A stretch of DNA of 64,000 nucleotides from Candidatus Parcubacteria bacterium (GCA_963718875.1 OY970378.1:388631-452630), one strand, 5' to 3'. Shown: positions 21,239 through 61,524, counted from the stretch's first letter. Program-made: numbers and translations. Notes: generated by a model from the letters alone, not told the origin.

Positions 21239-24200
21239 ATGGTTGCAGTAGTCCTAGTTATTTTAATATTGGCTATAGGTTTTGCGTGCGTTGCCTATGT
21301 GCTTTATCGGCGAACTTTACGCAGGGCAAAAAACATTGAGCGTGGCCTCAAAATGGTGCCTTTATTGATCCATTTGCCGCCTAGAAGTGCTGACACTGAG
21401 GCTGGTTCGCGGGACGTGCGTGAAGTGATGCGGGAAAAGGTGGCGCAAGCCGAGGTTTTGTATAATCTTATATCTGGTACAGCCACAACTGGATTTAAAA
21501 GCCGATTTTATGGTCAACGCCACGTTGCATTGGAAATTATAGCGACTGACGGAATGGTACATTTTTACGCGGCTGTACCGATAGCGTTGGTGCCGGTCAT
21601 CACTAACGCTATTCAAACTGCCTATGCAGGGGCAAAAATTGAAGAGGCCGAAGACCATAACATCTTTAACCCACACGGAAAGTTATCAAGTACTGCTGGC
21701 GGTGAACTGGTACTTAAGGCTAAGGCTGCCTACCCAATTGCAACAATTGAAAAACTGGAGCGGGATCCCATAGAAGCTCTTATAAATGCCTTGAGTAACT
21801 TAAAGCCTGGTGAAGGTGTCGGTATTCAGATTATGCTTCGCCCAGCCGCTAAGGGGTGGGAGAAAAAAAGCCTAGAGCTGGTTAAAAAAATGCGACATCA
21901 TGCTGGGGCGAAAGCTTCTTCTACCTATAGTACCCGTGATGTTTTAATGGCGGCGGTTAAAGCTCCTGAAGAGCGCCGCCAAGAAGTTGCAGCTAATTCT
22001 CCGCAAGCTCTATATATGAGCGACTTAGAACAGTCGGTCGTAAAAGCTATCGAAGAAAAAACTACTTTGGCTGCTTATGAAAGTTTGGTAAGAGTGTTGG
22101 TTTCGGCTAATAGCGCCCAAGAAGCGCAAAATTTACTACGTGAGGTAAGCTCTAGCTTCTCATTGCTGGATGCCCCTGGGCTTAACGGCTTTAAGTTTTT
22201 GCCTGCGAATGACATTGCCGGCTTGGTAACGGCTTTTATATTGCGTTTTTTCCCTCCAGAACTAAATCACACCATACTTAATAGTAAGGAACTGGCAACT
22301 TTGTTCCATTTGCCCGACGCCCAGTTTACGGCAAATTCGGAAGTTGAGCGACTGGCGAGCAAAGAGGTGGACGGACCGCCAGCTATTCCCTCCACTGGCC
22401 TATTGATGGGATATAACATTTTTCGAGGGACTAAAAAAGAAATTCATCTTTCGCCTGAGGACCGTCGCAGGCATACCTACATTGTAGGACAAACCGGTAC
22501 AGGTAAAAGTACTATCTTACAGAATTTGGCGGTTCAAGACATGCTGGCAGGCAATGGCTTTGCTTTTATTGACCCTCATGGTGATGAGGCAGAAAAAATG
22601 CTTTCAATGGTGCCCAAAAACCGCTCTGAAGATGTAATTTATTTTAATCCAGGGGATACCGATCATCCGTTAGGACTGAATTTATTTGAGTTTAGTGACC
22701 CGGCGCAGAAAGATTTTTTGATTCAAGAAACTATTAATATGCTTTATAAGCTGTACGATCCGAATGGAACGGGTGTTATTGGTCCTCGGTTTGAACAATG
22801 GTTTCGTAATGCCGCCCTTACACTGATGAGTGATCCAAATGGGGCTACTTTTATTGAAATTCCAAAAGTCTTTACTGATAACGATTATCTCAAGCAAAAG
22901 TTCAAATACATTCAAGACCCAACAGTTATGGAGTTTTGGACTAAAGAAATGGGCCAAACCAGCGACTACCATAAAAGTGAAATGTTGGGTTATTTTGTAA
23001 GTAAGTTTGGTGCGTTTCAGCAAAATGAAATTATGCGTAATATTATTGGCCAAACCAAAAGCGCATTTAACCTGCGTGACATTATGGATAACAAAAAAAT
23101 CCTAATTGTAAACTTGAGTAAGGGTAAATTGGGCGAGCTTAACTCGAGGTTGTTAGGTATGATGTTTGTAATTAAATTCCAGGCGGCGGCTATGAGTCGT
23201 GCAAATGTCCCTGAGGCTGACAGACCGGATTTTTGCTTATATGTAGACGAGTTCCAAAATTTTTCAACCGATTCATTTGCTTCAATTTTGAGTGAAGCTC
23301 GTAAATATCATTTGAACTTGATTGTGGCGAACCAGTTTATAGGGCAGCTCAGTGATGAAATTCGGGACGCAGTGTTTGGCAACGTTGGGACTATTATGAG
23401 CTACCGAACTGGCCCGGAAGATGCGGAGTTTTTAGTTAAGCAGTTTGCTCCTATTTTTGATGCTCACGATATGGTCAATATACCCAACCACAATGCCGTT
23501 ATCCGACTGATGATTAGCGGGTTACCTTCACAGCCCTTTAGCATAACAGCTTTACCGCCGCTGGGAGTCGAAAATCCAGAGCTGGGCGAAGCCATGAAAC
23601 AGTTGTCGAGGGCTAAGTTTGGTTCAAGTCGAGCGCAGGTGGAACAGGAGATATTTGCGCGATTGAGTAGTAAGCCAGTGCAATCTCCAATTGCGAGCCA
23701 AACACCTGTAGCTGGGTTAAATTCAGGCGTACCACAGCCAACTTCTATGCCTAATCCACAATCGCCAATGTCGGCACTGCCTGGTCCCAATAGAGCTTTG
23801 CCTGGGGCTGCAGTTGGTGGTATTAATCCTACGGTAGCACCGGTTTTGTCTGGCAGCTCTTCGTCTCCAGTACCTTCTACGTCTACAGCGATGCCTGCAC
23901 AACCAAGAGTAGCTTCCGCTTCGGTCTTAAAACCGCTGGATAGCCAGCCTATAGTAGACACCCAGGCTCCTGGAGCAAATCCCAATAATGTTGCCACAAC
24001 TAACCCTACAGCTATAAGTCTGTTAACTCCAGCTTCGGTAGTAGGCGCGCCGCCTGCATCTTTGGTTTCTGTGGCGCCACCTAACGATAAAATAGATAAA
24101 AGCCAAGCTCAGGGGCAACCTCCTTCAAGTCAGGTAGCTCCGGTAGTTTCGCTGCACCATGATGCCGTTCCGCCAGCGCCGGCATCTATTCCGGCAAGTC

Positions 24201-25791: not shown

Positions 25792-26337
25792 TTAGCGTTT
25801 AGGCTTAATAATTTTAGCTAATCCTTCGATAATAAGACCAAGGACTCCTCCGACTACTAGTGACAGAATAAATTCTGAGCCAGACAAGCTAAATCCGCCG
25901 ACTCTAGCTGTTACGTATAAAAATCCACCTAGTAGTGCGGCGGTGGTGGTGGCTCCGAGCAAAACCGAGGGTCTTGCAACCGTAGCACCGGCTATCTCGC
26001 TAGTTTTTTCGACGGTCGGACTATGAATTACTTTACTAAACTGGCGACTGGCTGGCGATAGGTGTCGCTGAAGGCTTCGAAGCGTATCAACGTATGCTAC
26101 TTCTTTGTCTAGACGCGTAGGTTTGTTGGTGACTATAGTGTCTTTTTCAGCCGCTGATGCCTGTGGTTCCGGTTGTTGTTCTAGTTTTAAACGGGCTGCT
26201 TCCAGTTGCTCGAACCGTTCATTTCGGCCTTCTTCTAGTTGTTCTGGGCTAAGCTCGCGACGTTCAGGCCCCTGAAGCTGTTCGTTGCCTTCAGGAGTTT
26301 TAGCTAATTCTGGGTTTTTAGATTCGTATTCTGGCAT
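25792..26337 (-). CDS. hypothetical membrane protein (acidic N-terminal region, two C-terminal TM helices)
   Basis: ORF immediately downstream of the LPXTG protein gene on the same strand; charged coiled-coil-like N-terminus, hydrophobic C-terminus. Confidence 0.4.
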   Translation of the reverse strand: MPEYESKNPELAKTPEGNEQLQGPERRELSPEQLEEGRNERFEQLEAARLKLEQQPEPQASAAEKDTIVTNKPTRLDKEVAYVDTLRSLQRHLSPASRQFSKVIHSPTVEKTSEIAGATVARPSVLLGATTTAALLGGFLYVTARVGGFSLSGSEFILSLVVGGVLGLIIEGLAKIIKPKR

Positions 26338-26345
26338 TGGTACCT

Positions 26346-28151
26346 TTATATCCCTGGGTTATGTTCAACTCGAAGAATCTTAACCTCTTTGCTTAATTGA
26401 CGGTTTCGTAAGTAAAAGTAAACGATGAGGCTAAATGAGGCTAACATTATTGTAGCACTGGTAGTGGCTCCGGTCTCAGGTAAAGTTTGGGCGGCTGCCT
26501 CAAGTTGTTTTATAGGCGGTGCGGCCACTGGGATAATAACTGTATTTCCGTAAACATTATTCATTTGTAAATCAAACGAAAAAATATCGGATGTTGATCG
26601 AGCTGTGGTTGGAACTGGATTTTTAATTTTAATTTGAAATACATTCGTAGTGCCGCTGCCGGGTGAGATGTTAACGGCAGGCCAGACTAGGGTTCGATTA
26701 ACCATGGTTGCACCACCTAGGTTAACGACTTCGGCGTATTCTAATATATCGGTGATGTTCTCACTAAGTTGGTAGGCATTTTGAATCCCTGCGCCGCTAT
26801 TGGTGGTTCTAAGGGTGTATTCGATAATGTCTCCAGCGCCGGCTTTAATATTGGGGTTGTTGGCATCAAGCATGTTTCCGTCTTTCCCGTCGCGTTGGAT
26901 GTAGGCAGCGGATTTAAATTGGTTAATATGAGGAAGTTGAGGGGTTGTAGCGGGAGTCGGAGTAGGAACGGGGACTGGAGTTGGTACCGGCACAGGAGTA
27001 GGTACGGGCGTAGGGACTGGTACGGGGGTAGGTACAGGAACTGGTGTAGGTACAGGAGTAGGCACTGGTGTTGGTGCAGTTGGGGTGACTGGTGAAGGAT
27101 TAGGCAGTATGGCCACACCGCATTTGAATTGTCCTGAGGTCGAGCCGTTTGAATAGGCAGTAATCTCAGGGTTGTTGGCGTCACCGTCTATTCCGCCACC
27201 GTTGCCTGCAGTGTCAACGCCTCTGGCATAGATGTAGAACCGATGGGTTTTGCCGTCACGGTATTTTGCCGGAATCTGCCAACTAAAGCCGTGATTGCCG
27301 GATATACCAAAGGTTTTATTAACATCTGGTCTTGATATGTTGGTAGCTCCATAGTCGTATGCATCGGTTGTTGGTATTTGACGCGAAGCTGAAGCTGGGG
27401 AGTCTACATATATATGAATACCAATGGCAGTAGTAGGGCTGTCGGAGTCGTAGGCCCATCCGGGGACGTTAAAACAATCCCAGGGATCAATGGTTCCTAA
27501 TGGTATTTTTTGAGATGGTGGAGGGGGTGGTGGAGGAGGGGAGGTTTGTGTGGGCAGGTTTTCAACAGCAATATTGCCACATGACATTAGTATGGCAAAA
27601 TAAGTTCCTTGGCTATTACGTCCTTCAATAACTCGAGCGTTGGTAGTTACTGCTACCGATCCGAGAGTACGGGCGTAGTAGGTATAGCTACCGACGTTAA
27701 TTACTTGGTCGGTTGAATCATACCGTTCGCGACCGATGGAAATTAGGCTGCTACCTTGGGCGGGAATATATTTTGGCTCGCTAGCATTACGAATGTCGTC
27801 ATCAGAGATGTGGTAATAATCGCGGTAAAGCGCTCGAAGCTCGGCACTGCCGTTGATGCTTTGGATGAGGTCGTCTTTGTCGCTAATGCCTCCTTGAATA
27901 ATGTCATTTGGTGATGAGTTATTAGCGCCTACTGGAGGCACAGAAATGGCGAAAAATTGCATTAGGATGGCAAAAATACCAGTAATTAATGACAATCGCC
28001 TTGTAAGGTTCTCGCGACGCAAGCGCTTTGCGTAAAACGCCAGTTGACTAGTAATCTGAGGGCTGAAATTTAAATTTGAAACTAACTTTTTGAACATTTG
28101 TCTTTCAATCTTCTTATGTTTAATTAAAGCACAGGTGTACCCAATGTGCAA
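26346..28151 (-). CDS. sortase-anchored (LPXTG) cell-surface protein with poly-Pro and (PTPV)n linkers
   Basis: N-terminal signal/TM segment. The C-terminus has LPETG followed by a hydrophobic stretch and RNRQ (a canonical cell-wall sorting signal). Internal PPPPPPPP and a PTPVPTPVPV repeat are present. The start may be the second ATG at 28097. Confidence 0.75.
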   Translation of the reverse strand: MHIGYTCALIKHKKIERQMFKKLVSNLNFSPQITSQLAFYAKRLRRENLTRRLSLITGIFAILMQFFAISVPPVGANNSSPNDIIQGGISDKDDLIQSINGSAELRALYRDYYHISDDDIRNASEPKYIPAQGSSLISIGRERYDSTDQVINVGSYTYYARTLGSVAVTTNARVIEGRNSQGTYFAILMSCGNIAVENLPTQTSPPPPPPPPSQKIPLGTIDPWDCFNVPGWAYDSDSPTTAIGIHIYVDSPASASRQIPTTDAYDYGATNISRPDVNKTFGISGNHGFSWQIPAKYRDGKTHRFYIYARGVDTAGNGGGIDGDANNPEITAYSNGSTSGQFKCGVAILPNPSPVTPTAPTPVPTPVPTPVPVPTPVPVPTPVPTPVPVPTPVPVPTPTPATTPQLPHINQFKSAAYIQRDGKDGNMLDANNPNIKAGAGDIIEYTLRTTNSGAGIQNAYQLSENITDILEYAEVVNLGGATMVNRTLVWPAVNISPGSGTTNVFQIKIKNPVPTTARSTSDIFSFDLQMNNVYGNTVIIPVAAPPIKQLEAAAQTLPETGATTSATIMLASFSLIVYFYLRNRQLSKEVKILRVEHNPGI

Positions 28152-31828: not shown

Positions 31829-33898
31829 ATGGCAGATAAACAAAACTATGGTGCGGCACAGATCCAGGTACTTGAGGGGCTAGATCCAGTTCGCAAGCGG
31901 CCGGGAATGTATATTGGTGGAACCGGTCCGGAAGGGCTCCAACATCTGATAACGGAGGTTGTCGATAACTCGATTGATGAGGCCATGGCCGGGCACGCCA
32001 CATTTGTAGAGGTGGTACTGATGGCCGATGGTGGTGTGCGCGTAACCGATGACGGCCGGGGAATCCCAGTCGATAAAGTTGCTTCCACCGGCAAAAGCGC
32101 TCTCGAGACCGTTTTAACTGTATTGCATGCCGGTGGTAAGTTTGGTGGCGATAGTGGATATAAAGTATCCGGGGGACTGCATGGCGTCGGTATTAGCATT
32201 GTTAATGCGCTTTCAACCAAAGTTGTAGCTGAGGTTAAGCGTGATGGCAAACTATATCGCCAAGAGTTCCAAATGGGTAAACCGATGGCTGACGTAAAGG
32301 TTGTGGGTACAGCCGAAGGTACAGGGACAACCATTACATTTTGGCCAGATGCCAGCATATTTGAAACTGTGGAATTTAATTACGACACTGTTTTGGAGCG
32401 CTTAAGGCATGAGGCATATTTAACAAAAGGTATCTTAACTAAGGTCATTGACGAGCGGACGAGCAAGCGTTTTAGCTTTTATTTTGAAGGTGGGATAAGA
32501 TCATACGTTGACCATCTGAATAGGAACAAAGAGGTCTTAAACGTGCCGCCTTTTTACGTCGAAAAGACCGTTAAAGATGCTGTAGTAGAACTGGCTATCC
32601 AATATAATGACGGTTACATCGAAAACGTAAAAGCATTTGCAAATCATATTTATAATCCCGATGGTGGAACGCATCAGGAAGGCTTCCGACGTGCTCTTAC
32701 ACGAGTTATTAATGAGTATGCTCGCAAGAATGGCTTATTGAAAGATAGCGAAGAAAATCTTACCGGTGAGGATGTTCGTGAAGGTATTACTGCGGTTATA
32801 TCCGTTAAATTACCTGATCCGCAGTTTGAAGGCCAGACAAAATCAAAATTAGGCAATCCTGAAATCCGTGCTTATGTGGAGCAAGTGTTGACCGAGTGGC
32901 TCAACTATTACATGGAAGAAAACCCCAATGAAGGGCGTAAGATTGTTGGTAAAGCGGCTCTTTCTGCCCGGGCTCGGATTGCGGCCAGGGCGGCTCGAGA
33001 TACGGTTATACGCAAAGGGGCACTTGATGGTATGACGCTGGCCTCAAAGCTGAGCGATTGTCGCACCAAAGACGTGCATAGGAGCGAATTATTCATTGTA
33101 GAGGGTGATTCTGCTGGTGGTTCTGCCAAAATGGGGCGTGATAGTGAATTTCAGGCCATTCTTCCGTTACGTGGGAAAATATTGAATGTTGAGAGAGCTA
33201 GACTTGATCGCATGTTGGGCAATAACGAAATCAAGAATTTAATTATTGCAATGGGTACTGGTATTGCTGACCAGTTTGAAGTTATCAAATTGCGTTATGG
33301 CCGCATTATTATTATGACTGATGCAGATGTTGATGGCGCCCATATTAGAACTTTGTTACTGACTTTTTTCTTTCGACATATGCCCGAGATTATAAATGAA
33401 GGTCATCTATATATTGCCCAACCTCCGTTGTATTTGCTGCAAGCGGGTAAACGTAAAAAATATTACGCTTATACAGATGAGCAGCGTGACCAACAGTTAG
33501 AAGAATTGATTGCTGCCCGAGCTAGCGGTAAGGCAGATCCTGAGGTGGAGGCGGAAATTATTGCTAGTAACGAAGAGGTTGCTGCGTCAGAAGGGATAGA
33601 TACTGAAGTGGTTGAAATAGACGAGCTTGAAACAGTAGTAATTGATGATGAAACTTCTGGTCGTCTGAAACGAGCCGGCATTACAAATATTCAGCGTTAT
33701 AAAGGCCTGGGTGAGATGAATGCAGAGCAACTTTGGGAAACAACTATGGATCCAGCAAATCGTATTTTATTAAAGGTGTCGGTAGAGGATGCCGAAAAAG
33801 CCGATGCCATTTTTAATAAGCTTATGGGTGAAGAGGTGCTTTTACGAAAAAACTTTATCCAAGCTAATGCTACCAGTGTAGAAAATTTGGATATCTAA
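31829..33898 (+). CDS. gyrB: DNA gyrase subunit B
   Basis: GHKL ATPase motifs, TOPRIM (EGDSAGG), a gyrase B C-terminal region, 689 aa. Confidence 0.95.
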   Translation: MADKQNYGAAQIQVLEGLDPVRKRPGMYIGGTGPEGLQHLITEVVDNSIDEAMAGHATFVEVVLMADGGVRVTDDGRGIPVDKVASTGKSALETVLTVLHAGGKFGGDSGYKVSGGLHGVGISIVNALSTKVVAEVKRDGKLYRQEFQMGKPMADVKVVGTAEGTGTTITFWPDASIFETVEFNYDTVLERLRHEAYLTKGILTKVIDERTSKRFSFYFEGGIRSYVDHLNRNKEVLNVPPFYVEKTVKDAVVELAIQYNDGYIENVKAFANHIYNPDGGTHQEGFRRALTRVINEYARKNGLLKDSEENLTGEDVREGITAVISVKLPDPQFEGQTKSKLGNPEIRAYVEQVLTEWLNYYMEENPNEGRKIVGKAALSARARIAARAARDTVIRKGALDGMTLASKLSDCRTKDVHRSELFIVEGDSAGGSAKMGRDSEFQAILPLRGKILNVERARLDRMLGNNEIKNLIIAMGTGIADQFEVIKLRYGRIIIMTDADVDGAHIRTLLLTFFFRHMPEIINEGHLYIAQPPLYLLQAGKRKKYYAYTDEQRDQQLEELIAARASGKADPEVEAEIIASNEEVAASEGIDTEVVEIDELETVVIDDETSGRLKRAGITNIQRYKGLGEMNAEQLWETTMDPANRILLKVSVEDAEKADAIFNKLMGEEVLLRKNFIQANATSVENLDI

Positions 33899-34049: not shown

Positions 34050-36596
34050 ATGGACGAAGAAATCAAAACACCAGTTGAAGATGTGATTGATCGCGAGCCA
34101 AATCGCAGCATAGAAACTGAAATGGAGTCAAGCTACCTCGAGTACGCAATGAGCGTAATTGTAGCCAGGGCCTTACCGGACGTGCGTGATGGTTTAAAGC
34201 CAGTTCATCGACGCATCTTGTATGCCATGAATAATATGGGATTACGCTATACAGCCAAGTTTCGTAAAAGTGCCTTGGTAGTAGGAGATGTTTTAGGTAA
34301 GTATCACCCTCATGGTGACTCGGCGGTCTACGAATCAATGGTGCGCATGGCCCAAGATTTTTCGTTGCGGTACCCTTTGATTGATGGTCAAGGAAACTTT
34401 GGCTCGCTGGATGGTGATTCTGCCGCCGCCATGCGATATACCGAAGCGCGCATGACTAAGCTAGCAGGCGAATTGCTTCATGATATCGATAAGGATACGG
34501 TTGATTTTAGGCCTAATTTCGATGGTTTTGATAAAGAGCCCGTGGTGCTTCCTGCCAAAGTACCAAACTTACTTTTAAACGGCGTTATGGGTATTGCAGT
34601 TGGAATGGCCACCAATATCCCGCCGCACAACTTGAGGGAACTTATTGAGGCTTGTATATATTTGATCGAAAATCCCAACGCTACCACTGGCGAGTTAATG
34701 CAATTTGTTAAAGGGCCTGATTTTCCAACTGGTGGGATCATTTATGGGACGGAGGCAATTCGAGCGGCCTATGGTACAGGTAAAGGTTCGATTGTAGTGA
34801 GAGCGGTGGCAGAGATTGTAGAGGATAAAAAGGGCAATCAAAGCATTGTCGTGACTGAGATTCCCTATGCACTCAATCGAAGCGTTTTAGTAGATAAGAT
34901 TGCTGAGCTTCATCGCGATAAAAAAATTGTAGGTATTTCCGATTTGCGCGATGAAAGCAGTATGCGTGGAAGTACTAAAAGCTTAACGGGCGGCACAAAG
35001 ATCGTTATTGAATTGAAAAAAGATGCTTATCCCAAAAAGATCTTAAACCAGCTTTATAAGCTTACGCCTATGCAAACGGCTTTTCATGTAAACATGCTTG
35101 CTTTAGTCGATGGTATTCAGCCTCGTGTTATGACTCTAGAAATGATGTTAGCAGAGTTTCTTAAGCACCGCCGTAGCGTAGTAAGAAGGCGCAGTGAGTT
35201 TGAGTTGCGCAAGGCAAAGGATCGAGCCCATATCCTTGAAGGCTTAAAGATTGCACTTGATCACATTGATGAGGTAATCAAAACCATTCGTGCGTCAAAG
35301 AATGCTGAAGAAGCAAAAGTTAGCTTAATGTCCAAATTTAAACTGAGTGAGCTTCAGGCTAAAGCTATATTAGCAATGCAACTTAGGACCCTAACAGGCT
35401 TGGAGCGTGGGCGAATAGAAGCAGAACTGGCCGATTTAATGAAGCTAATAGCAGAGCTGGAAAAAATTCTAGGCGAAGAAAGTGAATTGTTAAGAGTAGT
35501 TCGGGAAGAGCTTGAAGAAATGAAAGAAATGTATGGAGACGAGCGGCGTACGCTGATTGTCCCAACTGAGCTTGGTAAATTTAGCGAAGAAGAGCTGGTT
35601 CCAAATGAGCAAGTGATAGTAACGCTGACAAACAGCAACTATATTAAGCGCATTCCATCTAATACTTACAAATCCCAGGGTCGGGGAGGAAAGGGTATTA
35701 TTGGGATGGGGACAAAAGAAGAAGATGTGGTTGACCACTTAGTACTAACACAGAACCATGATTATATTATGTTCTTTACAAATAAGGGTCGTGTATTCCG
35801 CTTGAAGGTGCACGAAATTCCGACTGCATCAAGGACAGCTAAGGGTCAGGCAATTGTGAATTTGTTGCAGCTACAGCCAGAAGAACGAGTGACTTCACTA
35901 ATTACAATGGAGTCTGACGCAAAGGCCGGATATTTGTTCATGGCAACCAAAATGGGTACGGTTAAAAAAACCTCGCTGTCTGATTACGCTAATGTGCGGG
36001 GGAGTGGGTTGATTGCAATTAAGCTTGATCCTGGTGATGAGCTACGTTGGGTTAAGGTTACGAGCGGGAAAGATGAAATTGTTATTTCGACAGCCTTGGC
36101 TCAAGCACTGCGTTTTAAAGAAATTGATGTTCGGCCGATGGGTCGAGCTACCCGAGGTGTAAGAGGAATTAGGCTACGGCCTGGAGACATGGTGGTGGGG
36201 GTAGACATTGCAATGCCCAACTCAGAGATATTAGTTATTATGGAAAACGGTTATGGGAAACGGACCAAGATTGACCAGTTTACAACTCATGCTCGAGGGG
36301 GCGTGGGTATAAAAGCTGGGGTGGTTACGGCTAAAACGGGTAAGACTGTTGAGGTGCGGGCTATAACTGATTTAACGGAGGACCTGGTTGTAGTTTCGAC
36401 TCAAGGACAAGTTATTCGCCTTGCTCTTAAAGGTATCTCGTCGATTGGAAGGGCGACTCAAGGAGTCCGCATTATGCGCATGAAAGAAGGCGACAAGGTA
36501 GCTTCGGTGGCGTTGATCGGTGAGACTAAGCTGGAAGCAGAGTTAGAAACGCACACAAGTTCTGAAACTGAACCTGATGTCAAGGAAGAAAAATAA
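34050..36596 (+). CDS. gyrA: DNA gyrase subunit A
   Basis: Active-site region AMRYTEARM (catalytic Tyr), the QRDR-like [11 protein letters not shown]-terminal beta-pinwheel repeats, 848 aa. Confidence 0.95.
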
Positions 36597-36762: not shown

Positions 36763-37752
36763 TTGGTGGCTAAAAGAGCAGCTAAATTTGTAACAACTTC
36801 TATAGTAACGGGTGTACTTTCGCTCGGTTTTGCTGTTGCCACTCATGCTGCAGATACCTCTGCAGCCGAAGTCGATAATTATTCAACAACTGTAGTAACG
36901 ACCCACAAAACTCAAACCATTTCTGTTGCAGAAAGTAATAGTAATATTAATAATGATTCGGACGGGAATGACTCAACTGAGCAATCTTTGTCGCAATATT
37001 CCAATGATGTTAATGTAACCCTACAAAGTTCTGTTAGTTCTAATGATTTAGAACTTAGCAATACAACTACTAGTACGAAAGTTGATACTACGGCAACTGA
37101 TGTTGACGGTAAGAGGTTGGGTTCTTCGGATTCTCATCTAAGTATGAGTCTGGTTGGTGCTGTGAACCCTGAGCTTAATAGTGGTTCTTTCGGACCCTCC
37201 TCTTCTAGTAGTTCTGCCCAAAAAACTTTAGCTGCGCCGACACCTGTAACTCCAGAGTTTCAAGCTCGTTTGCAGGCTAAAATGTCGCAATTAAGCGGAG
37301 GACATTCTGCAATTAGACACGCAGAGCCTTCGTACGGATTGGCGGCCTTAGATACGTCTGCCAACTTGCCTGATACGCCTGTAGCACCGGCTCCAGCCAA
37401 AGATTTGCCTATCCAAGGTGCTCTGGCAGGCATTTCTAATACTTTGTCGAATATTACTTTGCCTACAGTCCGTGAGTTTATGGTGGCCATGGTAGCTTCT
37501 CTTCGCACGACTATAACAGTAGGCTTAATTCTGGCCATTACCCTGATATCGCTTGTTTCTTTATCGGTAAAACGTCGCTTTGTTGATGAGTTAAAATCAT
37601 CGGGATACAGTCATGCTGCGCGGGCCGACGTCTCAGATTCTATTCTTTTTGCTACTCCTACAAAAGTGAGTTTTGCTTGGGCCGTACAGCCCAGCCAGAA
37701 GCTCACTTTTTTTGGTGTCAGAAACAAAGTATTAACGTTCCAAATCCAATAA
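36763..37752 (+). CDS. secreted/membrane Ser/Thr-rich hypothetical protein
   Basis: N-terminal signal-like hydrophobic segment, low-complexity S/T/N-rich body, C-terminal TM helix. Confidence 0.4.
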   Translation: MVAKRAAKFVTTSIVTGVLSLGFAVATHAADTSAAEVDNYSTTVVTTHKTQTISVAESNSNINNDSDGNDSTEQSLSQYSNDVNVTLQSSVSSNDLELSNTTTSTKVDTTATDVDGKRLGSSDSHLSMSLVGAVNPELNSGSFGPSSSSSSAQKTLAAPTPVTPEFQARLQAKMSQLSGGHSAIRHAEPSYGLAALDTSANLPDTPVAPAPAKDLPIQGALAGISNTLSNITLPTVREFMVAMVASLRTTITVGLILAITLISLVSLSVKRRFVDELKSSGYSHAARADVSDSILFATPTKVSFAWAVQPSQKLTFFGVRNKVLTFQIQ

Positions 37753-37771
37753 GAAAGGAGGTGAAGATATA

Positions 37772-38455
37772 ATGACAGTCAAACGTGCAATTGCAGTAAC
37801 AAGTGTAGCCAGCATGCTTAGTTTTGGATTAACTGGATTAGCTCACGCAGATGAAGTGTCGGTAAGCTTGACCGGTCCAGGTTCCACTACAAATACTAGT
37901 ATTAACGAAACTACCAATGTCACGTCTAATACTAACAATAATGTAGCGGTTACAAACGTGAACACGCAGATTGCTACAAGCGGTAGCGCCAACGTAAGCG
38001 GTAATACAGTTGGAGGTTCAGCCACAACTGGCAACGCAAGCAATAATGCTACTACAACAACTGTAGTTGCGATTAATAATCCAGCTCCTGTATTCCCAGG
38101 AATGGGTAGTGCCGGTACACCAGGAGGTACTGGTGTTGGTGGTAGTAGTAATGTCGGTGGCGGAGGAGGTAGCGTTGGTGCAAGCGGAAGCGGTGGTTCG
38201 AGCCGCATTCTAGGTGCAGGTAGTGGTGGTAGCGGCGTTGGAGCAGCTATGACCTTGCCTCAAACTGGACCAAGCGACCAAATCGATGTTTCGGCTCTTC
38301 GCAGCCAAACCTTGAGCGCATCTGCCCCAGCACCAAGCATTGTTAAAAAGACCAATGGTTTTTCAACAATGTTGTTGGTAATCGCAGCCGCCCTAAGTTT
38401 GCTCGGGGCAGTTGGGAGCGCAGTGTTCTCTATTCGCCAAAAGCGAATGGTTTAA
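37772..38455 (+). CDS. secreted Asn/Thr/Gly-rich repeat protein with LPQTG motif and C-terminal TM plus basic tail (putative sortase substrate)
   Basis: Signal peptide; the module LTGPGSTTNTS...NTNNNVAVTNVN...SGSANVSGNTVGGSATTG is shared with the two downstream genes; LPQTGP; C-terminal hydrophobic segment followed by RQKR. Confidence 0.5.
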   Translation: MTVKRAIAVTSVASMLSFGLTGLAHADEVSVSLTGPGSTTNTSINETTNVTSNTNNNVAVTNVNTQIATSGSANVSGNTVGGSATTGNASNNATTTTVVAINNPAPVFPGMGSAGTPGGTGVGGSSNVGGGGGSVGASGSGGSSRILGAGSGGSGVGAAMTLPQTGPSDQIDVSALRSQTLSASAPAPSIVKKTNGFSTMLLVIAAALSLLGAVGSAVFSIRQKRMV

Positions 38456-38467
38456 GGAGGGTGTTCC

Positions 38468-38944
38468 ATGCAAGTTAGAAGTACCTTAACGAAAACATCG
38501 GCTATAGCACTCGCTATAACAGTAATATTACTAGGACTCTTGGCTTTCTTGAATCGGCAGCCCAAGTCCCTCAGCAAGGTAAAAGCTACCACCGAGTCTA
38601 GTAGCAATGTTGTTACTGCAGATCCAAAAGTGGATAGTGTAAAAAGTGCACCGGTTGATGTGACGGTTAACGGCCAGCATATAGATATGCCGGAAAATGG
38701 TTCGAAAACCATCCATTTAAATAGTGGCGAAAAGGTTGAGGTCAGTTCTACCCAAGAGGGTGGTTCTTCTACTGTAACTACGTCGCCCAATGGTTCGATC
38801 CAGGTTTCGACCCAAACGTCCAATAACAACTCTTCGGCTAGTTCGACAACCCAGGTTTTTAGCAGCAGCTTCAACCAGTCATCGAATTCGTCGCAAGATC
38901 ATGTGTTCTCGACTAGCAACAACAGCGTGCAAGTCACTCATTAG
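38468..38944 (+). CDS. secreted Ser-rich hypothetical protein
   Basis: N-terminal TM/signal segment followed by an S/T/N-rich low-complexity body. Confidence 0.35.
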   Translation: MQVRSTLTKTSAIALAITVILLGLLAFLNRQPKSLSKVKATTESSSNVVTADPKVDSVKSAPVDVTVNGQHIDMPENGSKTIHLNSGEKVEVSSTQEGGSSTVTTSPNGSIQVSTQTSNNNSSASSTTQVFSSSFNQSSNSSQDHVFSTSNNSVQVTH

Positions 38945-39030
38945 AAAAGACTATGTCAAATAGCAGCCCATAGCGGGCCCTCGGGCCCGGTACTACAAAA
39001 AATAATTAACTAAAGAAGGAGTTTTCAAAT

Positions 39031-39618
39031 ATGAAAACAGCACACGTTTTACGATACGCCGCTATCGGTATGGCAACCCTAGGTCTAGGCCTTGGTACAG
39101 TCGCCGCTAGCACCGTAACCGTTGGCACAACTGGCCCAGGTTCAACGACCAACACCAGCGCCAACACAACCCACAACGCCACAGTCAACACCAACAACAC
39201 AGTTGGTGCCCTGAACTTGAACGCACAGGGTGCTTCAAGTGGCAACACTAATGTTAGCGGAAACACCACCGGCGGTTCAGCCACCAGTGGAGCCGTTAAC
39301 AACAACGCCGTATCCACCACAACTGTAGCAGTCAACAATGCTGCTTCAGCAGGTGCCGGTGCCGGTTTCTGGACCGGTGGTAATGACTCAGTATCAGTCA
39401 ACTTGACTGGCCCTGGTTCAACCACAAACACTAGTGTAAACAACACCAACAACTGGACTCAGAACACTAACAACAATGTTAATGTTACCAACTTGAACTT
39501 CCAGTCTGCTGGAAGCGGTAGTGCAAACGTAAGCGGTAACACCGTTGGCGGAAGTGCTACGAGTGGTAGTGCTTCAAACACTAGCTCAACTTCAACTTCA
39601 GTTACTCTAAGTAACTAG
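39031..39618 (+). CDS. secreted Asn/Thr/Gly-rich repeat protein (paralog of 37772-38455)
   Basis: Signal peptide and two copies of the GPGSTTNTS...NTNN...N(L/V)N...SGNT(V/T)GGSATSG module. Confidence 0.5.
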   Translation: MKTAHVLRYAAIGMATLGLGLGTVAASTVTVGTTGPGSTTNTSANTTHNATVNTNNTVGALNLNAQGASSGNTNVSGNTTGGSATSGAVNNNAVSTTTVAVNNAASAGAGAGFWTGGNDSVSVNLTGPGSTTNTSVNNTNNWTQNTNNNVNVTNLNFQSAGSGSANVSGNTVGGSATSGSASNTSSTSTSVTLSN

Positions 39619-39677
39619 TTCGAGGTCGCTCACGATGGGGAGCTTAGCTCTCCATCCGCAATTATCCAAATATCTCA

Positions 39678-42056
39678 ATGTCTAAAACATTTAATGCGGG
39701 GGCTCACATGAAAAATCGAAAACTTATTTCAAGCATACTAGTAGGTCTATTGCTAGGCGCACAGGTTAGTTTTGTGGGCGCTGCTTATGCCGAAGAAACT
39801 GTTCCTCCGGCCGAGCCAACTTCAATTAGTCAGGAGGTGGTTAACGAGGAACCTGCTACCGAGTCAGACACTTCGACTGAGGAAAATGACGCTTCGAACC
39901 AAGCTGTCGACAATACCCCGCTCAGTACTACTGAGCCATCAACTCCAGAGACTGAGGGTACCACAGCTCTATCCAGCGAAACACCTGTGTCGCAGCCACT
40001 TGTAACGGGTCCTACTGCGCCGACCGGCCCATCAAGCCAAACTGGTGTTGATCTAGCCGAGACAGGCCCAGAAGAGCCTACAGGAACTGTTCCTGATTGG
40101 GTGTTTAACACTCAGACAGGACAGTGGCAAGAGTCTGATAAAAGCTCGTTTACTTGGGATAAAAAATCAGGTTACTGGTTGTCGCCCTTATATTGGTACG
40201 ATACACGCATCGGTTGGTACAAAGTTTTAACTCCAGCGCAGATAAGCGACCCAAATCGACCCACGTATCTGATTACTGCTCCTAAGCCACCGCAAATGAT
40301 TGTTACTCCTTTTGGGAACATGATCGTTGGATCTCCTGAATACAACATGGCGGTTGCTATGGGAGTAATTAATCCTGTTAGTAGTCCTAATGATCCTTCA
40401 ATAAGCAATACTGGGCCAAACTCTACCAATAATGCATTAGTGAGCAATGCTAATAATGGTTGGTTAGACTTTACTAATTTGGTGAATGTGGTTAACACTT
40501 TGCAGTCAAGCGCAGCTTCAGGTGCAGCTAGCTCTAATGGCAATACTGTTGGAGGAGACGCCGTAACTGGTGCTGCAACAGTGCTTATGAATGTCTTTAA
40601 TTTGTTGTCGGCGGCATGGTCTTGGAGCAATGGTAATCTTCATACGTTCTTTGCTAACTTCTTTAACCACAAAGGTGACATTACCTTGAACCCGATTGCA
40701 AGCCAAGGTGGGGGTGGAGGCTTTGGTACGGCTGGTGGAACAAGTGCTGTTTCAAATACGGGGGCAGGATCGACCAACAATGCCGGAATCTCCAATGACA
40801 ATAACCTTAATGTGAACGCAAGTAATGGCGCTACCATTAACAATAATATTGACGCATCGGCTCGTTCTGGTAGTGCTGATGTAAATGGCAACAGCATTGG
40901 CGGAAGCGCTACCTCGGGGGATGCGCTGGTGGAGCTCAATATCATTAATATGATCAACTCGTTTATAAACTCCGGAGAATCATTCTTTGCAGTTTTGAAC
41001 TTGTTTGGTGATTTTCATGGCAACATATTGTTCCCCGACGGCTTCTTCAATGGAGTTATCTCAGGGCAGGACGGAGGGAGTCAGGTCGCTTCAGCTACTA
41101 ACACCGGACCGAACTCAACCAATAATCTTTCGACAGGTACAACCAATAACACGATTTTAAACAACACTAACAATGCTGCCTTTAACAATGACATCAGTGC
41201 CAATGCTGTATCTGGAAGCGCTGACGTGGTAGGTAATGGTGAGGCGGGGGCTGCTGCTACTGGTAAGGCTAAAACTTCACAAAGCTTGTTTAATTTTTTT
41301 AACACCAGCTTATTTGCAGATAATGCAGTACTTGTAATGGTAAATGTAGCTGGACGTTGGTTAGGTAAAATCGTAGGAGCATCAACCTTGGGGGGCAACC
41401 AATCAGCCTTACTAACCAGTAACGGTCAAGTAAGCGCTACCAATACCGGACCGAACTCAACCAACTCAGCGTCAAGTGCAACGACAAACAATACTACCGC
41501 GAACAACAGTGTGAATGGAGTCATCAATAATAATGTTGACTTGGAAGCTAGGAGTGGTAACGCGACTGTAGCATCAAACACTAAGGGTGGGGATGCAAAA
41601 AGTGGGGATGCAACCATAGTTTCAAACGTCGCTAACTTTTACAACAGTGCCATAAATGTGAAGCGATGGTTTGGGGTACTAATTATCAATGTGTTTGGGA
41701 ATTGGTTCGGGTGTGCTGCCGAAAAATGTGATACCACCGGTCAGCCCGTATCTGCCCAAGCTGCCGTAGCGCTAGCGCAGATTGTGCCTCCTCCGGCTTT
41801 GCTCGGCAATGCCGTGAGTAATACTGGAACAAATAATGTGGCCTCATCTATAACTGCAAATCCAGTTCAACCAGAATCGTCTACTGAGATTGCTCCCAAC
41901 CGTATTCAAGTAGCATCTGCTCAATTGACTCCTCAGCAGACAGGTGCAGCTCAGACGACAAAAATGATGAGCTGGCTGATGGGACTAGCCGCATTGGTAT
42001 TGCTGGCAGCGGGTGGCTTGGCTGGCCTAGAGCGCAAGCTCAAAGTGCGCGGATAA
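39678..42056 (+). CDS. large secreted repeat protein carrying four copies of the same Asn-rich module, C-terminal TM anchor
   Basis: Signal peptide, acidic S/T/P-rich stalk, four roughly 80-aa modules each starting (S/T)NTGPNSTNN and ending SGxA(D/T)VxGN(S/T)(V/I)GG(S/D)A(T/K)SGDA, and a C-terminal hydrophobic helix plus ERKLKVRG tail. Confidence 0.55.
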   Translation: MSKTFNAGAHMKNRKLISSILVGLLLGAQVSFVGAAYAEETVPPAEPTSISQEVVNEEPATESDTSTEENDASNQAVDNTPLSTTEPSTPETEGTTALSSETPVSQPLVTGPTAPTGPSSQTGVDLAETGPEEPTGTVPDWVFNTQTGQWQESDKSSFTWDKKSGYWLSPLYWYDTRIGWYKVLTPAQISDPNRPTYLITAPKPPQMIVTPFGNMIVGSPEYNMAVAMGVINPVSSPNDPSISNTGPNSTNNALVSNANNGWLDFTNLVNVVNTLQSSAASGAASSNGNTVGGDAVTGAATVLMNVFNLLSAAWSWSNGNLHTFFANFFNHKGDITLNPIASQGGGGGFGTAGGTSAVSNTGAGSTNNAGISNDNNLNVNASNGATINNNIDASARSGSADVNGNSIGGSATSGDALVELNIINMINSFINSGESFFAVLNLFGDFHGNILFPDGFFNGVISGQDGGSQVASATNTGPNSTNNLSTGTTNNTILNNTNNAAFNNDISANAVSGSADVVGNGEAGAAATGKAKTSQSLFNFFNTSLFADNAVLVMVNVAGRWLGKIVGASTLGGNQSALLTSNGQVSATNTGPNSTNSASSATTNNTTANNSVNGVINNNVDLEARSGNATVASNTKGGDAKSGDATIVSNVANFYNSAINVKRWFGVLIINVFGNWFGCAAEKCDTTGQPVSAQAAVALAQIVPPPALLGNAVSNTGTNNVASSITANPVQPESSTEIAPNRIQVASAQLTPQQTGAAQTTKMMSWLMGLAALVLLAAGGLAGLERKLKVRG

Positions 42057-42628: not shown

Positions 42629-43471
42629 GTGTATTACAATCCTTACATATTAATACCTTTTGCAACTTGGGCGATTGCTCAGGCAATCAAGTTTGCGCTA
42701 GCCGCATGGCGAGGCAATTTGGACTTTAAATACTTATACGCTTCGGGTGGTATGCCCAGTGTCCATTCGGCTGTGGTTTGCTCACTGGCGACCACCTCTT
42801 TATTGATAGACGGGCCAGAAAGCCATTTATTCGGCTTCATCTTGCTGTTTGCTGCAATCGTTATGTACGACTCTTTTGGTGTCCGCCGAAGTACTGGTGA
42901 ACAAGCGGTTGCTATAAATGTAATCTTATCAAGTCTTGAGCACGACCGGATTAAAATGGATATGCCTCAGCATAAGTTGAGGGAAGTTTTGGGTCACAAG
43001 CCAGCCGAAGTAGCGATAGGGGCGTTATTGGGTATTGCACTAGGAGGACTCTTTAACTTTTCTCGTCTTGGCACTCAGTACAACTATATTAGTAGTACAC
43101 CGGGCAAAATTGAAATGCTGGCTTATGCGGTGTTGTTTGCAACGATGTTGGTGGTAGGTGTAGTCATAAGATTGGTTTTTAGCAGACGTTATCGTAAATC
43201 CACGGTTATGAAGCGTTTGGGTAGACAGATAGTGTTGCTGTCACAGACGGTTGGATGGCTGGGTTTAGTCGCGGCATTTGGGCAGTACCAACGCTTACCT
43301 TATTTAGCTGGGCGCGGATGGTCCTGGGTAATGGCGGCTGTTTTAGTTATTTGGGCTGTTTACCTAGTGGCTAAGTTCAGCTCGATTGTACCAGCAGAGC
43401 TTGCATTAGAATTAGAGCAGCAGCGCAAAAAAAAATGGCTGACTAAAAAGCCGAAGAAAAGACGAAAATAA
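42629..43471 (+). CDS. DUF212 / divergent PAP2-superfamily membrane protein with an extra C-terminal membrane domain
   Basis: Signature YASGGMPSVHSA and the overall TM layout of the acid-phosphatase/vanadium-haloperoxidase-related family. Confidence 0.55.
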   Translation: MYYNPYILIPFATWAIAQAIKFALAAWRGNLDFKYLYASGGMPSVHSAVVCSLATTSLLIDGPESHLFGFILLFAAIVMYDSFGVRRSTGEQAVAINVILSSLEHDRIKMDMPQHKLREVLGHKPAEVAIGALLGIALGGLFNFSRLGTQYNYISSTPGKIEMLAYAVLFATMLVVGVVIRLVFSRRYRKSTVMKRLGRQIVLLSQTVGWLGLVAAFGQYQRLPYLAGRGWSWVMAAVLVIWAVYLVAKFSSIVPAELALELEQQRKKKWLTKKPKKRRK

Positions 43472-43527: not shown

Positions 43528-45897
43528 ATGGCACAGAAATATCATTTTGAACACCATCGTCGAGAAGCGTTGCTAAACAAAAAGCGTTTTACTGTTGTAA
43601 ATGCAATTATGGTGGCTGCACTAGTTATAGCAGGGGGTTGGGTGTATTTTAGCGCTAGCAAAGCAGCTTTCAATGGCTTAGACGCAGCTATGCTTAATGT
43701 AACAGGTAATAATGTAGTTGTTCGTCCAGGAGATAGAATTCAGTATCGGGTGGGTTATGTTAATAACGGCCCAGCATCGTATAATAGCCTCTTTGTCCTA
43801 GATGGTAGGATACCTGCTTATACTCATATAGTTAGCCAAAGCGATGGGAGCGTGAACGGGCAGCAAAACCCTTACGTTAAGAGCTACTCAGTAACGAGCT
43901 TCTCGGCTAGATGGGAGCTAAGTGGGATTCCTGCAAGTGGGGCTCCGTATAATGCTTGGGAAGGGTTTTATTACACGGTTGAAGTAGATGCAAATGCCCC
44001 TTCAAATTACAGCATTAGTGCGCGGGCTGAGTTAGTTAAAGGTGATGGTACTATCCAGCTCTTTTCTGCCTCTACCTCCAATCCAACGCCCGCACCTCCA
44101 CCCCCACCCCCACCCGCTACCGTTAGTATTTCGGCTAGCAGCACGCAAATAACTCAAAATTCCCCCTTGACCATAACGTGGTCCTCGCAAAATGCCACAG
44201 CATGTAATGCCTCTGGTACGACTTGGTCAGGAGCCCGTGCAGGCTCGGGTTCGGAAAATCGAAATTCCGATACTGGGGCCATACGTACTATTACCTATAC
44301 TATGACATGCAACAACTCTACTTATGGGGGTAATAGTGCTTCCGTGAATGTTAATGTTGTGAGCGCTCCACCTCAGCCTCCGCCGCCGACGCCTCCACCA
44401 AGCGTCAGCGTTACAGCTAGCCCAACTACGGTGTATCAATATACGGGCTTGAATGTTTCTTGGGCGACTCAGAATGCTTCTTCATGCAATGCCTCGGGAA
44501 CAACATGGAGCGGAGCCAAAATCCCTGGCAATAATACCGAGAACCGAAACGCTGACACCAATATTATTCGCACGCTTAATTATATTTTGACCTGTGTGAA
44601 TTCTGGCGGGAGTGCTAGCGGTTCGGCTAATGCTAGTGTTATAAAATCGGCTTCTCCAAGTGTTCCTGCAGGATTAAGAATTGATTCGCAGACTGCATCT
44701 AGTTTGCGTGTAACATGGCAAGCGTCTTCGGCGGCTCAAGGTAGTAGTATTAACTATTATCAAGTTCGAAATAGTGGAGGTACGCCTATTGGTACGACTG
44801 CATTGACCAATTTTGTGGTAAATTCGGGCTTACAGCCGTGTAGGTCATATTCTTTTACGGTTGTTGCTGTAAATAACCAAGATACTGTTTCGGCGCCCTC
44901 GAGTAGTATAACCGGATCGACAACTGGTTGTCCTCCAGCCACCAAGCCGACGACAGCGCCTCCAGCTCCGCCTCAATCGTCCGCTCCTAAGCCACAAGCT
45001 GGGCCGAAACCAAATGTAACAGGACAAACCAATGGCGCAACAGTGGTGATTCCGGACACAAATGCCCCGACAGCTCCTACTAATCTCAAGGCTAAGGTGG
45101 AAGATGATGGTTCAACAGTTCGGCTTAGTTGGGCTGCTGCTAAAGACGACAAGGAGGTTGCTAGCTATCAGGTAGAACGTTCGACAGACAAATCTACCTG
45201 GGACGTCCTTACTACAAAAGCCACCTCTACAAATTATGCGGATACAGCAACTACCTTTAGTATCCATTATTTTTATCGAGTCAAAGCTATTGATGCAGCA
45301 GGAAATGCTGGTCTTTTTGCAAATGTTGATGTAACAACTAAAGCATTTGTCGCAAATACCAATAACTCGCAGTCAACGGCTATAGTTTCCTCCGATGGCT
45401 TGGTGACGGTTAAGTTGCCAAGCGGTGCAGTAGACTCGCAAACTTCTTGCAGTGTTGTCAAGGATGCTTCAAATAATGATGGCATAAAATCTACTAAATT
45501 GATCTTGGCAGCTGGACCATATAGTTTTAGCTGTAAACAGGCTGACGGTACTATAGTTGATCATTTTAGTACTGTGGTGACGGTAGAGGTATCAAAAAAA
45601 TCCAAAGTCTTTGGCAAGTACAGTAGCATCAAGATTTATACCCACGATAATGCTAATAACCGATGGATGAGCATGATCTCATCGTTGAACAAAAAAACTC
45701 AGGTCATTAGTGCAACAAGTTCAACGCCGTTGCAGTTTGCAGTTCTTGGTGTGGCGAAAAAAGGCATACCGTTTAGCCTAATCGTTATAGTGGTGTTCAT
45801 CCTAATCTTAGTTGGATTGTTCTTTAGCTGGAGAGTCCGCCAACAGCAAAAAGTACAATACAACGAATATATACGACATAAGTACTACGACTTATAG
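43528..45897 (+). CDS. cell-surface protein with tandem roughly 95-aa repeat domains, fibronectin type III-like domain(s), poly-Pro linkers and a C-terminal TM anchor
   Basis: N-terminal TM. Two homologous domains (…TWSSQNATACNASGTTWSGA…NRN(S/A)DT…) are each preceded by a P-rich linker. An FN3-like segment (PTAPTNLKAKVEDDGSTVRLSWAAAKDDKEVASYQVERS) is present. C-terminal hydrophobic helix plus RVRQQQK. Confidence 0.55.
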   Translation: MAQKYHFEHHRREALLNKKRFTVVNAIMVAALVIAGGWVYFSASKAAFNGLDAAMLNVTGNNVVVRPGDRIQYRVGYVNNGPASYNSLFVLDGRIPAYTHIVSQSDGSVNGQQNPYVKSYSVTSFSARWELSGIPASGAPYNAWEGFYYTVEVDANAPSNYSISARAELVKGDGTIQLFSASTSNPTPAPPPPPPPATVSISASSTQITQNSPLTITWSSQNATACNASGTTWSGARAGSGSENRNSDTGAIRTITYTMTCNNSTYGGNSASVNVNVVSAPPQPPPPTPPPSVSVTASPTTVYQYTGLNVSWATQNASSCNASGTTWSGAKIPGNNTENRNADTNIIRTLNYILTCVNSGGSASGSANASVIKSASPSVPAGLRIDSQTASSLRVTWQASSAAQGSSINYYQVRNSGGTPIGTTALTNFVVNSGLQPCRSYSFTVVAVNNQDTVSAPSSSITGSTTGCPPATKPTTAPPAPPQSSAPKPQAGPKPNVTGQTNGATVVIPDTNAPTAPTNLKAKVEDDGSTVRLSWAAAKDDKEVASYQVERSTDKSTWDVLTTKATSTNYADTATTFSIHYFYRVKAIDAAGNAGLFANVDVTTKAFVANTNNSQSTAIVSSDGLVTVKLPSGAVDSQTSCSVVKDASNNDGIKSTKLILAAGPYSFSCKQADGTIVDHFSTVVTVEVSKKSKVFGKYSSIKIYTHDNANNRWMSMISSLNKKTQVISATSSTPLQFAVLGVAKKGIPFSLIVIVVFILILVGLFFSWRVRQQQKVQYNEYIRHKYYDL

Positions 45898-46776: not shown

Positions 46777-48326
<1,550 letters not shown>

Positions 48327-51700: not shown

Positions 51701-51776
51701 TGGTGGAGCATGTCGGGATCGAACCGACCACCTCCTGCTTGCAAAGCAGGCGCTCTACCGAATGAGCTAATGCCCC
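51701..51776 (-). tRNA. tRNA-Ala (anticodon TGC)
   Basis: Reverse complement GGGGCATTAGCTCATTCGGTAGAGCGCCTGCTTTGCAAGCAGGAGGTGGTCGGTTCGATCCCGACATGCTCCACCA; G3-U70 pair, anticodon loop CTTTGCAAG. Confidence 0.9.
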
Positions 51777-51861: not shown

Positions 51862-51938
51862 TGGTGGGCGCACAGGGACTCGAACCCCGGACCTCGTCAT
51901 TATCAGTGACGCGCTCTAACCAGCTGAGCTATGCGCCC
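51862..51938 (-). tRNA. tRNA-Ile (anticodon GAT)
   Basis: Reverse complement GGGCGCATAGCTCAGCTGGTTAGAGCGCGTCACTGATAATGACGAGGTCCGGGGTTCGAGTCCCTGTGCGCCCACCA; anticodon loop CTGATAA. Confidence 0.9.
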
Positions 51939-57767: not shown

Positions 57768-61143
<3,376 letters not shown>

Positions 61144-61518: not shown

Positions 61519-61524
61519 TTAATC

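Follow-up and report, generated by a model that had tools for sequence, protein, structure and literature searches.

A conserved locus of Saccharimonadia encodes exported proteins with a shared Asn/Thr/Gly-rich module, candidates for a multi-subunit surface structure

What might five consecutive genes for exported proteins, three of them sharing one repeated module, build at the surface of a bacterium of the candidate phyla radiation (CPR)? The genes lie on the + strand at 36763-42056, 3' of gyrA, in a 64,000-nucleotide stretch deposited as Candidatus Parcubacteria bacterium (GCA_963718875.1, OY970378.1:388631-452630), and this whole stretch, part of a Saccharibacteria genome, is called the window here. 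An earlier sequence-only reading had described an island of five secreted proteins with a novel module, and all five open reading frames (ORFs) are present where it had placed them. The answer that I hold, with modest confidence, is that the cluster encodes a CPR-specific, multi-subunit, beta-solenoid-like envelope structure (a stalk, fibre or coat). I infer that g2, g4 and g5 would co-assemble in it and that it would serve in envelope integrity or host attachment. The genes, with their lengths in amino acids (aa), are:

36763-37752, + strand: g1 (G1 family), 329 aa, TTG start
37772-38455, + strand: g2 (G2 family), 227 aa
38468-38944, + strand: g3 (G3 family), 158 aa
39031-39618, + strand: g4 (G4 family), 195 aa
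39678-42056, + strand: g5 (G5 family), 792 aa

The database version of g5 (P0001) begins at Met11 (nucleotide, nt, 39708) and has 782 aa, and 39708 is probably the true start. Gaps of 12-86 nt separate the genes, all on one strand, strong Shine-Dalgarno sites precede g2, g3 and g4, and no terminator-like or promoter-like sites above shuffled expectation were found in the cluster.

Is the shared module a true homology or a by-product of biased composition? A hidden Markov model (HMM) built from 60 g4-family proteins, compared with 200 residue-shuffles per protein, scored g2 at 74.8 bits (E 4e-22) and g5 at 121.5 bits (E 2e-36). Module proteins overall ranged from 75 to 184 bits, whereas every shuffle stayed under 8 bits (shuffled g2 and g5 reached -4.4 bits at best or went unreported, and over all five proteins the maximum was not above 7.5 bits); g1 and g3 gave no match. 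Because the real scores lie so far above those of the shuffles, the sharing of the module is homology, not Asn/Thr-rich composition. A module HMM bears out the earlier count of one copy in g2, two in g4 and four in g5:

37859-38041, + strand: g2 module core, aa 30-90, 55.3 bits
39118-39300, + strand: g4 module 1 core, aa 30-90, 46.6 bits
39394-39576, + strand: g4 module 2 core, aa 122-182
40398-40580, + strand: g5 module 1 core, aa 241-301, 54.9 bits; extension strands to about aa 340 in the model
40746-40928, + strand: g5 module 2 core, aa 357-417; extension to about aa 455
41091-41273, + strand: g5 module 3 core, aa 472-532; extension to about aa 570
41433-41615, + strand: g5 module 4 core, aa 586-646; extension to about aa 680, with the family motif WFGVLxINVFGxWxG

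An alignment of the seven copies, as the sequence-only reading had proposed, has 13 invariant columns, and the family-wide consensus is TGPxSxN…NxNxVxVxNxNxQxAxSGxAxVxxNTxGGxAxSGxAxN. The length of about 80 aa first given for the module needs to be divided into a core of about 60 aa and a repeat period, which is 92 aa for g4 and about 115 aa for g5. In g5, hydrophobic/aromatic strands occupy the 50 aa or so after each core, and these extension strands are missing from g2 and g4.

How faithfully is this arrangement kept in other genomes? Searches found 240 homologues of g5 and 145 of g4, with no informative Pfam domain among them; the few named sources are Saccharimonadia, Saccharibacteria or Patescibacteria. 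Nearly all of their products are unnamed or "hypothetical", the exceptions being "trimeric autotransporter adhesin" (JGI, P0030) and "mucin7-like" (NCBI). The JGI label was rejected, there being no Pfam domain for it in g5 or the 240 homologues. For the survey of the locus, one genome was taken per species, giving 179 matching stretches, from which 80 loci were fetched, their ORFs called and then classified with HMMs. These loci are labelled Saccharibacteria/Saccharimonadia, Patescibacteria or "bacterium", with one "Nomurabacteria". The order gyrA-G1-G2-G3-G4-G5-DUF212-fn3 is found in 33 Saccharimonadia loci, the window included, and a second arrangement, G3-G4-G5, in more distant genomes; G4 lies at most 400 nt upstream of G5 in all 73 loci with upstream DNA. 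There are four modules in 82 of 84 G5 proteins, two in 80 of 81 G4 proteins and one in all 54 G2 proteins. Variable-length adhesin stalks have no fixed copy number, and the fixed 4/2/1 copies seen here argue for a defined architecture.

The cluster is a conserved core locus of the class Saccharimonadia, a monoderm lineage of the CPR. The look for similar clusters in related genomes that the sequence-only reading had suggested led to this gyrA-type locus in its 33 instances, and the word "island" which that reading had used has to be dropped: gene order is syntenic, the G4-G5 pair is kept in 73 of 73 loci, and G+C is 0.466 in the cluster against 0.456 in the whole window, so near as to give no compositional sign of an island.

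The modules also co-vary. Within one genome, g2 and g4 modules reach 54-59% identity, against 39-42% for cross-genome paralogues and 41-46% for orthologues. When a module is compared with those of all genomes, its partner from the same genome ranks first in 47-63% of cases; about 2% would be expected by chance. For G5 modules the within-genome matching is weak, at 9-21%. In the window, the g2 module and g4 module 2 share 79% protein identity, with proportions of synonymous and non-synonymous differences (pS and pN) of 0.68 and 0.19. Recent gene conversion was rejected, since differences at synonymous sites have come close to saturation and the DNA shows no long stretches of identity; old gene conversion or selection for matching modules may account for the matching.

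Would the same observations arise if g2, g4 and g5 were independent adhesins or lectins, the module being a self-contained domain that binds a ligand, such as a glycan, or acts as a spacer and the genes clustered through duplication only? I consider this unlikely. The 1/2/4 copies and the adjacency of G4 and G5 are near-invariant across about 80 species, unlike typical adhesin arrays, the g2 and g4 modules co-vary within genomes, and g4, with no anchor or other domain, would diffuse off unless bound to the wall or to a partner. What speaks for separate adhesins is partly that g5 alone has the classic layout of anchor, linker, rod and tip, and partly the distribution of the module beyond this locus. 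A profile search of 1.84 billion representatives returned a wider family of at least 2,696 clusters at E<=1e-3 (1,549 at E<=1e-10), all "hypothetical", in which some single proteins carry 3 to 8 or more copies in tandem; for one such array, homologues with a named source were found in Parcubacteria, Staskawiczbacteria, Woykebacteria, Amesbacteria and Gottesmanbacteria. A few array proteins in these other CPR phyla also carry the dockerin domain PF00404 (P0379, P0381, P0384 and others), which suggests surface assemblies of the cohesin-dockerin type in those lineages. Furthermore, published work on Saccharibacteria, which covers type IV pili, sees a need for further adhesins acting at close range; these have been proposed and not identified (PMC11623550).

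As judged from these searches, the module is CPR-wide, found only in CPR bacteria, and uncharacterised. The earlier claim of novelty therefore holds at the level of the family and fails where it implied something peculiar to this genome, the module being widespread in the CPR. Literature searches on this family, and on sortase, S-layer or beta-helix surface proteins in Saccharibacteria, brought up no account of the family.

The single multi-subunit structure is preferred because of the fixed 1/2/4 copies, the strict adjacency, the within-genome co-variation, the fusions of G1 with G2 described below, and the absence from g2 and g4 of strands that accompany each core in g5. What part would each protein play in it? 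Topology (signal peptides and membrane segments) was judged by eye, and all five products would be exported by the Sec pathway. The earlier claim that the proteins are extracytoplasmic agrees with their signal peptides and membrane anchors and with a sortase association in relatives. Its attribution of signal peptides to all five stands except for g3, where a signal anchor is more likely; g2 and g5 do have the C-terminal membrane segment and basic tail that it gave to two of the proteins, and g1 has a membrane segment as well.

The longest protein, g5, starts with a signal peptide and a disordered linker of about 100 aa, rich in Pro, Thr, Glu and Ser. A Trp/Tyr-rich domain and the four modules follow, then a second disordered linker of about 80 aa, a membrane segment (aa 766-784) and a basic tail. 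The Trp/Tyr-rich domain lies as follows:

40065-40373, + strand: g5 Trp/Tyr-rich domain, aa about 130-232, with the family motif WVFD…GYWLSPxYxYDxxxGWY

AlphaFold2 models this domain at a predicted local distance difference test (pLDDT) score of about 90, with six short strands of beta-hairpin type, and sequence searches with it gave insignificant matches only (OCRE, E=0.029; PDB 4r03, E=0.078). I would place g5 as the long subunit, anchored by its tail, with a disordered linker spanning the wall, a four-module rod and the Trp/Tyr-rich domain at the distal end; that domain would be the likeliest ligand-binding part, perhaps glycan-binding.

The smaller g4 has a weakly hydrophobic signal peptide and two modules, without an anchor; its mature form is almost uncharged (1 Asp, 0 Glu), and the C-terminus of its family is conserved as …VxVxN. 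Neither g2 nor g4 contains Cys. As a soluble two-module subunit, g4 would be retained on the cell only by binding the others, and contacts between modules, by beta-edge or by stacking, would join g2, g4 and g5 into one structure. The two proteins without the module would be membrane-bound assembly or anchoring partners. One of them, g1, has a signal peptide and a Ser/Thr-rich low-complexity ectodomain of about 220 aa, then a membrane segment at aa 251-269; its last 60 aa or so form a conserved tail (…SGY..AAR.D…ATP.K…), and its homologues sit ahead of G2 in the gyrA-type loci. The other, g3, starts with a strongly hydrophobic segment that has no obvious cleavage site and is more likely a signal anchor than a cleaved signal peptide; a small beta-rich ectodomain and a Ser/Asn/Thr/Gln-rich tail follow. 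G3 homologues are present in 56 loci, upstream of G4 in both locus types, and Pfam gave g3 sub-threshold matches only (DUF4330, PilZNR).

How is g2, the short one-module subunit, tethered? Its N-terminus, MTVKRAIAVTSVASMLSFGLTGLAHA followed by DE, reads as a signal peptide with cleavage before DE. The module comes next, then a Gly-rich linker, LPQTGP and a spacer in which a VDVSALR-type element is conserved; the protein ends with a membrane segment (aa 201-219) and a basic tail.

38255-38269, + strand: g2 LPQTG motif, aa 162-166

The motif that the sequence-only reading had reported is thus in place, and the sorting signal around it is not of the usual form. The membrane segment of g2 starts 35 aa past LPQTG, well beyond the close spacing of sortase substrates, whose whole signal takes up about 30-40 aa, and the tail is 61 aa long. 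Across the clade of the window the membrane segment begins 26-37 aa past LPx(T/V)G and the tail has 55-65 aa, and of 30 orthologues from gyrA-type loci 19 carry LPxTG and 11 carry LPxVG, so that the Thr of the cleavage site is not conserved. This gap and these LPxVG motifs make sortase anchoring doubtful in the window's organism, where cleavage between the Thr and Gly of LPQTG is possible yet doubtful; g2 cannot be taken for the straightforward sortase substrate it had seemed to be.

The distant relatives look different. There a sortase gene immediately follows a one-module LPxTG protein, which lies about 1.7 kb from G3-G4-G5, and in 17 such loci (those that also have a G5 call) the motif is canonical LPxTG, the membrane segment comes 3-9 aa later and the tail has 29-37 aa. 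The G2 of these relatives is, on its sequence features, a genuine sortase substrate. A GT2 glycosyltransferase gene is next after the sortase, on the same strand, in 16 of 19 sortase hits, and this row of genes may mean that the anchored protein or the wall is glycosylated; one example is at 10349-12693 on the - strand of locus L002, and 15 other loci have it. In the window clade G1 stands where the distant arrangement has the sortase, and in two Saccharimonadia loci G1 and G2 form a single ORF (L007 3748-5463, 571 aa; L015 3524-5290, 588 aa). In these fusions the G2 signal peptide becomes an internal membrane segment. Because G1 replaces the sortase in position and because of these continuous ORFs, I read the data as an ancestral sortase-anchored G2 whose anchoring may have been altered in the window clade, where g2's own membrane segment, along with G1, would probably keep it in place.

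Elsewhere in the window, a 601-aa protein without a Pfam domain (26346-28151, - strand) has a canonical LPETG followed directly by a membrane segment and basic tail, which suggests that another part of the genome encodes a sortase; downstream of this protein, a 181-aa ORF (25792-26337, - strand) has no match.

What fold would the module have? With 53 homologues, AlphaFold2 modelled g5 at a mean pLDDT of 64, the module regions reaching 80-95 and being all beta, with disordered linkers; g4 alone, with 60 sequences, reached a pLDDT of 48, too poor for a fold search. Together with the missing extension strands, the poor g4 model is consistent with a subunit that needs partners. The fold search advised by the sequence-only reading gave nothing significant by Foldseek against PDB and BFVD viral structures; the fold neighbours are beta-helices, at 4-12% sequence identity and large root-mean-square deviation. 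Pfam, NCBIfam and PHROGs gave nothing above threshold for the five proteins, for isolated sub-domains or for 10 large family members, and sub-threshold Ntox35, DUF4330, PilZNR, OCRE and phage sheath domain II hits were judged noise. In the PDB sequence search the g4-family profile found no match, and the g5-family profile only the Pro/Thr linker and insignificant matches. It remains true, then, that sequence comparison links the module to no curated family and to no solved structure. Its predicted fold is beta-solenoid-like, and it would fold or stack into a rod of the beta-helix or solenoid kind.

Such a rod raises the question of whether the proteins form a functional-amyloid-like or templated beta-solenoid fibre, curli- or chaplin-like, in which g2 nucleates g4 while g5, g1 and g3 are accessory or anchoring. 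Mature g4, almost uncharged and rich in Asn, Thr, Ser and Gly, has the alternating pattern N.N.V.V.N.N.Q.A.SG.A.V typical of beta-arcade ladders, a short anchored protein stands beside an unanchored paralogue (compare long and short chaplins), the modules match within genomes, and the g4 monomer is poorly modelled; the top Foldseek match in PDB is the amyloid FapC, though not significantly (E=1.4). Against these points, the modules of g5 come out of modelling as a fold that is stable in the monomer, Pfam gave no match to Curlin, chaplin, TasA or Fap, and an hhalign profile comparison with an approximate E. coli CsgA sequence gave a 5% probability through the signal peptide only. An amyloid-like fibre therefore seems to me quite unlikely.

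A lattice is another way of covering a cell. Were the module proteins the building blocks of an S-layer or surface coat anchored by g5 and g2, one would expect a locus that is core, class-wide and beside housekeeping genes, as this one is, and S-layer proteins have been predicted in Patescibacteria, in families that are not named (10.1101/2024.05.28.596244). The Pfam scan found no SLH domain, nor is there any other S-layer anchoring domain, and the similarity to RsaA is generic beta-helix similarity. I rate the lattice as very unlikely.

Several points weigh against the multi-subunit envelope structure itself. The structure predictions are of g4 and g5 monomers. The arrays of other CPR lineages indicate that the module can work within one chain and need not join proteins, and the concerted evolution of g2 and g4 could reflect old conversion between neighbouring paralogues, not selection on an interface. 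The predicted fold is compatible with a solenoid or with "beads of beta-sandwich domains". The sorting signal of the window clade is non-canonical, and the sortase for which the sequence-only reading had advised a check, adjacent to G2 in the distant relatives, was not found within the 64-kb window by a TLxTC scan or a jackhmmer sortase profile. Finally, neither expression nor localisation data turned up for a member of the family.

A more specific form of the multi-subunit structure can be drawn up, tentatively, and I think it improbable in this full detail. It would be a heteromeric polymer in which tethered g2, with G1, templates the stacking of g4 into a beta-solenoid fibre or coat, beside a g5 stalk whose tip binds host glycans; such a polymer would be a monoderm counterpart of curli and chaplins for episymbiont attachment, and the within-genome matching of modules would have been selected for templating.

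The cluster is flanked as follows:

31829-33898: gyrB, upstream of the cluster
34050-36596: gyrA, between gyrB and g1
42629-43471: DUF212 (divergent PAP2) membrane protein, downstream of the cluster
43528-45897, + strand: fn3 surface protein, 789 aa, with Pro-rich linkers and membrane segments at both ends

A NUDIX gene stands between g5 and the DUF212 gene. The fn3 protein and DUF212 are syntenic 3' of the cluster in gyrA-type loci, and the fn3 protein (with DUF212) may be part of the same envelope locus. Other features of the window are unrelated to the cluster. The ribosomal RNA (rRNA) genes are unlinked, 16S (46777-48324, + strand) and 23S (57764-61152, + strand) being 9.4 kb apart with ORFs between them and with tRNA-Ala (51701-51776) and tRNA-Ile (51862-51938) on the opposite strand in the interval; 5S rRNA is at 61410-61519. 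The 23S match spans 3,389 nt against a 2,925-nt model, an insertion of about 460 nt that is possibly an intron, and a 150-aa ORF (59646-60098, - strand) lies inside the match. Introns in rRNA are common in the CPR. A 1,495-aa protein (21239-25726, + strand) has weak matches to P-loop, HerA and TrwB-type coupling proteins at aa about 400-500.

Why should the locus matter? The CPR bacteria, Saccharibacteria among them, live attached to bacterial hosts; apart from type IV pili and the recently described Pam pili, no envelope or host-contact proteins of theirs are known to have been identified. The module occurs in thousands of unannotated CPR proteins, and the components of this cluster have clear export and anchoring signals. 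If they form a defined surface structure, a large piece of CPR "dark matter" would gain a name, with g4, g5 and the g5 tip domain as targets; if they are merely another family of repeat adhesins, the value would lie mainly in annotation.

How, finally, does the cluster compare with surface systems already described? The Pam pili of the CPR are built from the pilins PamA and PamB, proteins of 39-55 kDa that have paired cysteines, an Ig-like N-terminal domain and a truncated Ig-like C-terminal domain with a donor strand, and that are joined by donor-strand exchange; their genes lie beside those for ATP synthase (10.64898/2026.03.03.709456). Like them, the cluster encodes CPR-restricted, Sec-exported surface proteins of Saccharimonadia in a conserved operon with membrane-anchored accessory proteins. 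Unlike them, its module has no Cys, is rich in Asn, Thr and Gly and has a predicted beta-helix-like form, and the cluster stands beside gyrBA; identity with the Pam system was rejected because architecture and context both differ from its description. The sortase-assembled pilins of Gram-positive bacteria were rejected as well, there being no Pfam pilin or Cna domains, beta-helices as fold neighbours and no adjacent sortase in the window clade. Of the beta-helix or fibre-like, pilus-associated surface structure that had been proposed from sequence, the surface location, the beta-helix-like character as a prediction and the unassigned family survive; the pilus association does not, since pilin domains and pilin-type motifs are lacking and Pam pili are Ig-like and encoded at another locus.

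Curli and Fap share with the cluster imperfect repeats rich in Asn, Gln, Gly, Ser and Ala, alternating conservation, a predicted beta-solenoid-like fold and a possible pairing of nucleator and subunit. The repeat unit is 60-115 aa here against about 20-23 aa in curli, and the organism has no outer membrane. Homology to curli was rejected on the CsgA comparison given above and for want of a Pfam match at E<=1, and among the window proteins scanned none matched a curli or Fap family in Pfam. The beta-helix and beta-roll proteins (SufD/SufB, the RsaA S-layer, RTX blocks, antifreeze proteins, these being beta-helical) would resemble the module in fold class only, and the cluster lacks the calcium-binding GGxGxD nonapeptides. 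PfbA of S. pneumoniae is reportedly an LPXTG-anchored beta-helix surface protein of the Gram-positive type; no sequence relationship to it was detected, and here LPxTG is about 35 aa from the membrane segment and often LPxVG, and there are three paralogues, not one.

The chaplins of Streptomyces are similar in design. The long ChpA-C have two chaplin domains and a sortase signal, and the short ChpD-H have one domain. In both systems secreted paralogues carry one small module in varying copies, one sortase-type anchored and others not, and the logic proposed here is also that of an anchored base with free subunits building a layer or fibre. The chaplin domain is hydrophobic with conserved Cys, whereas the cluster module is polar, Asn/Thr/Gly-rich and Cys-free, and g2, g4 and g5 have no sequence similarity to chaplins or chaplin Pfam match. 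Here, moreover, the anchored protein has the fewest modules, and there is a third, membrane-anchored protein with four modules and a tip domain. Set beside these systems, the proteins of the cluster are a new family within a known kind, that of anchored, beta-rich surface repeat proteins.

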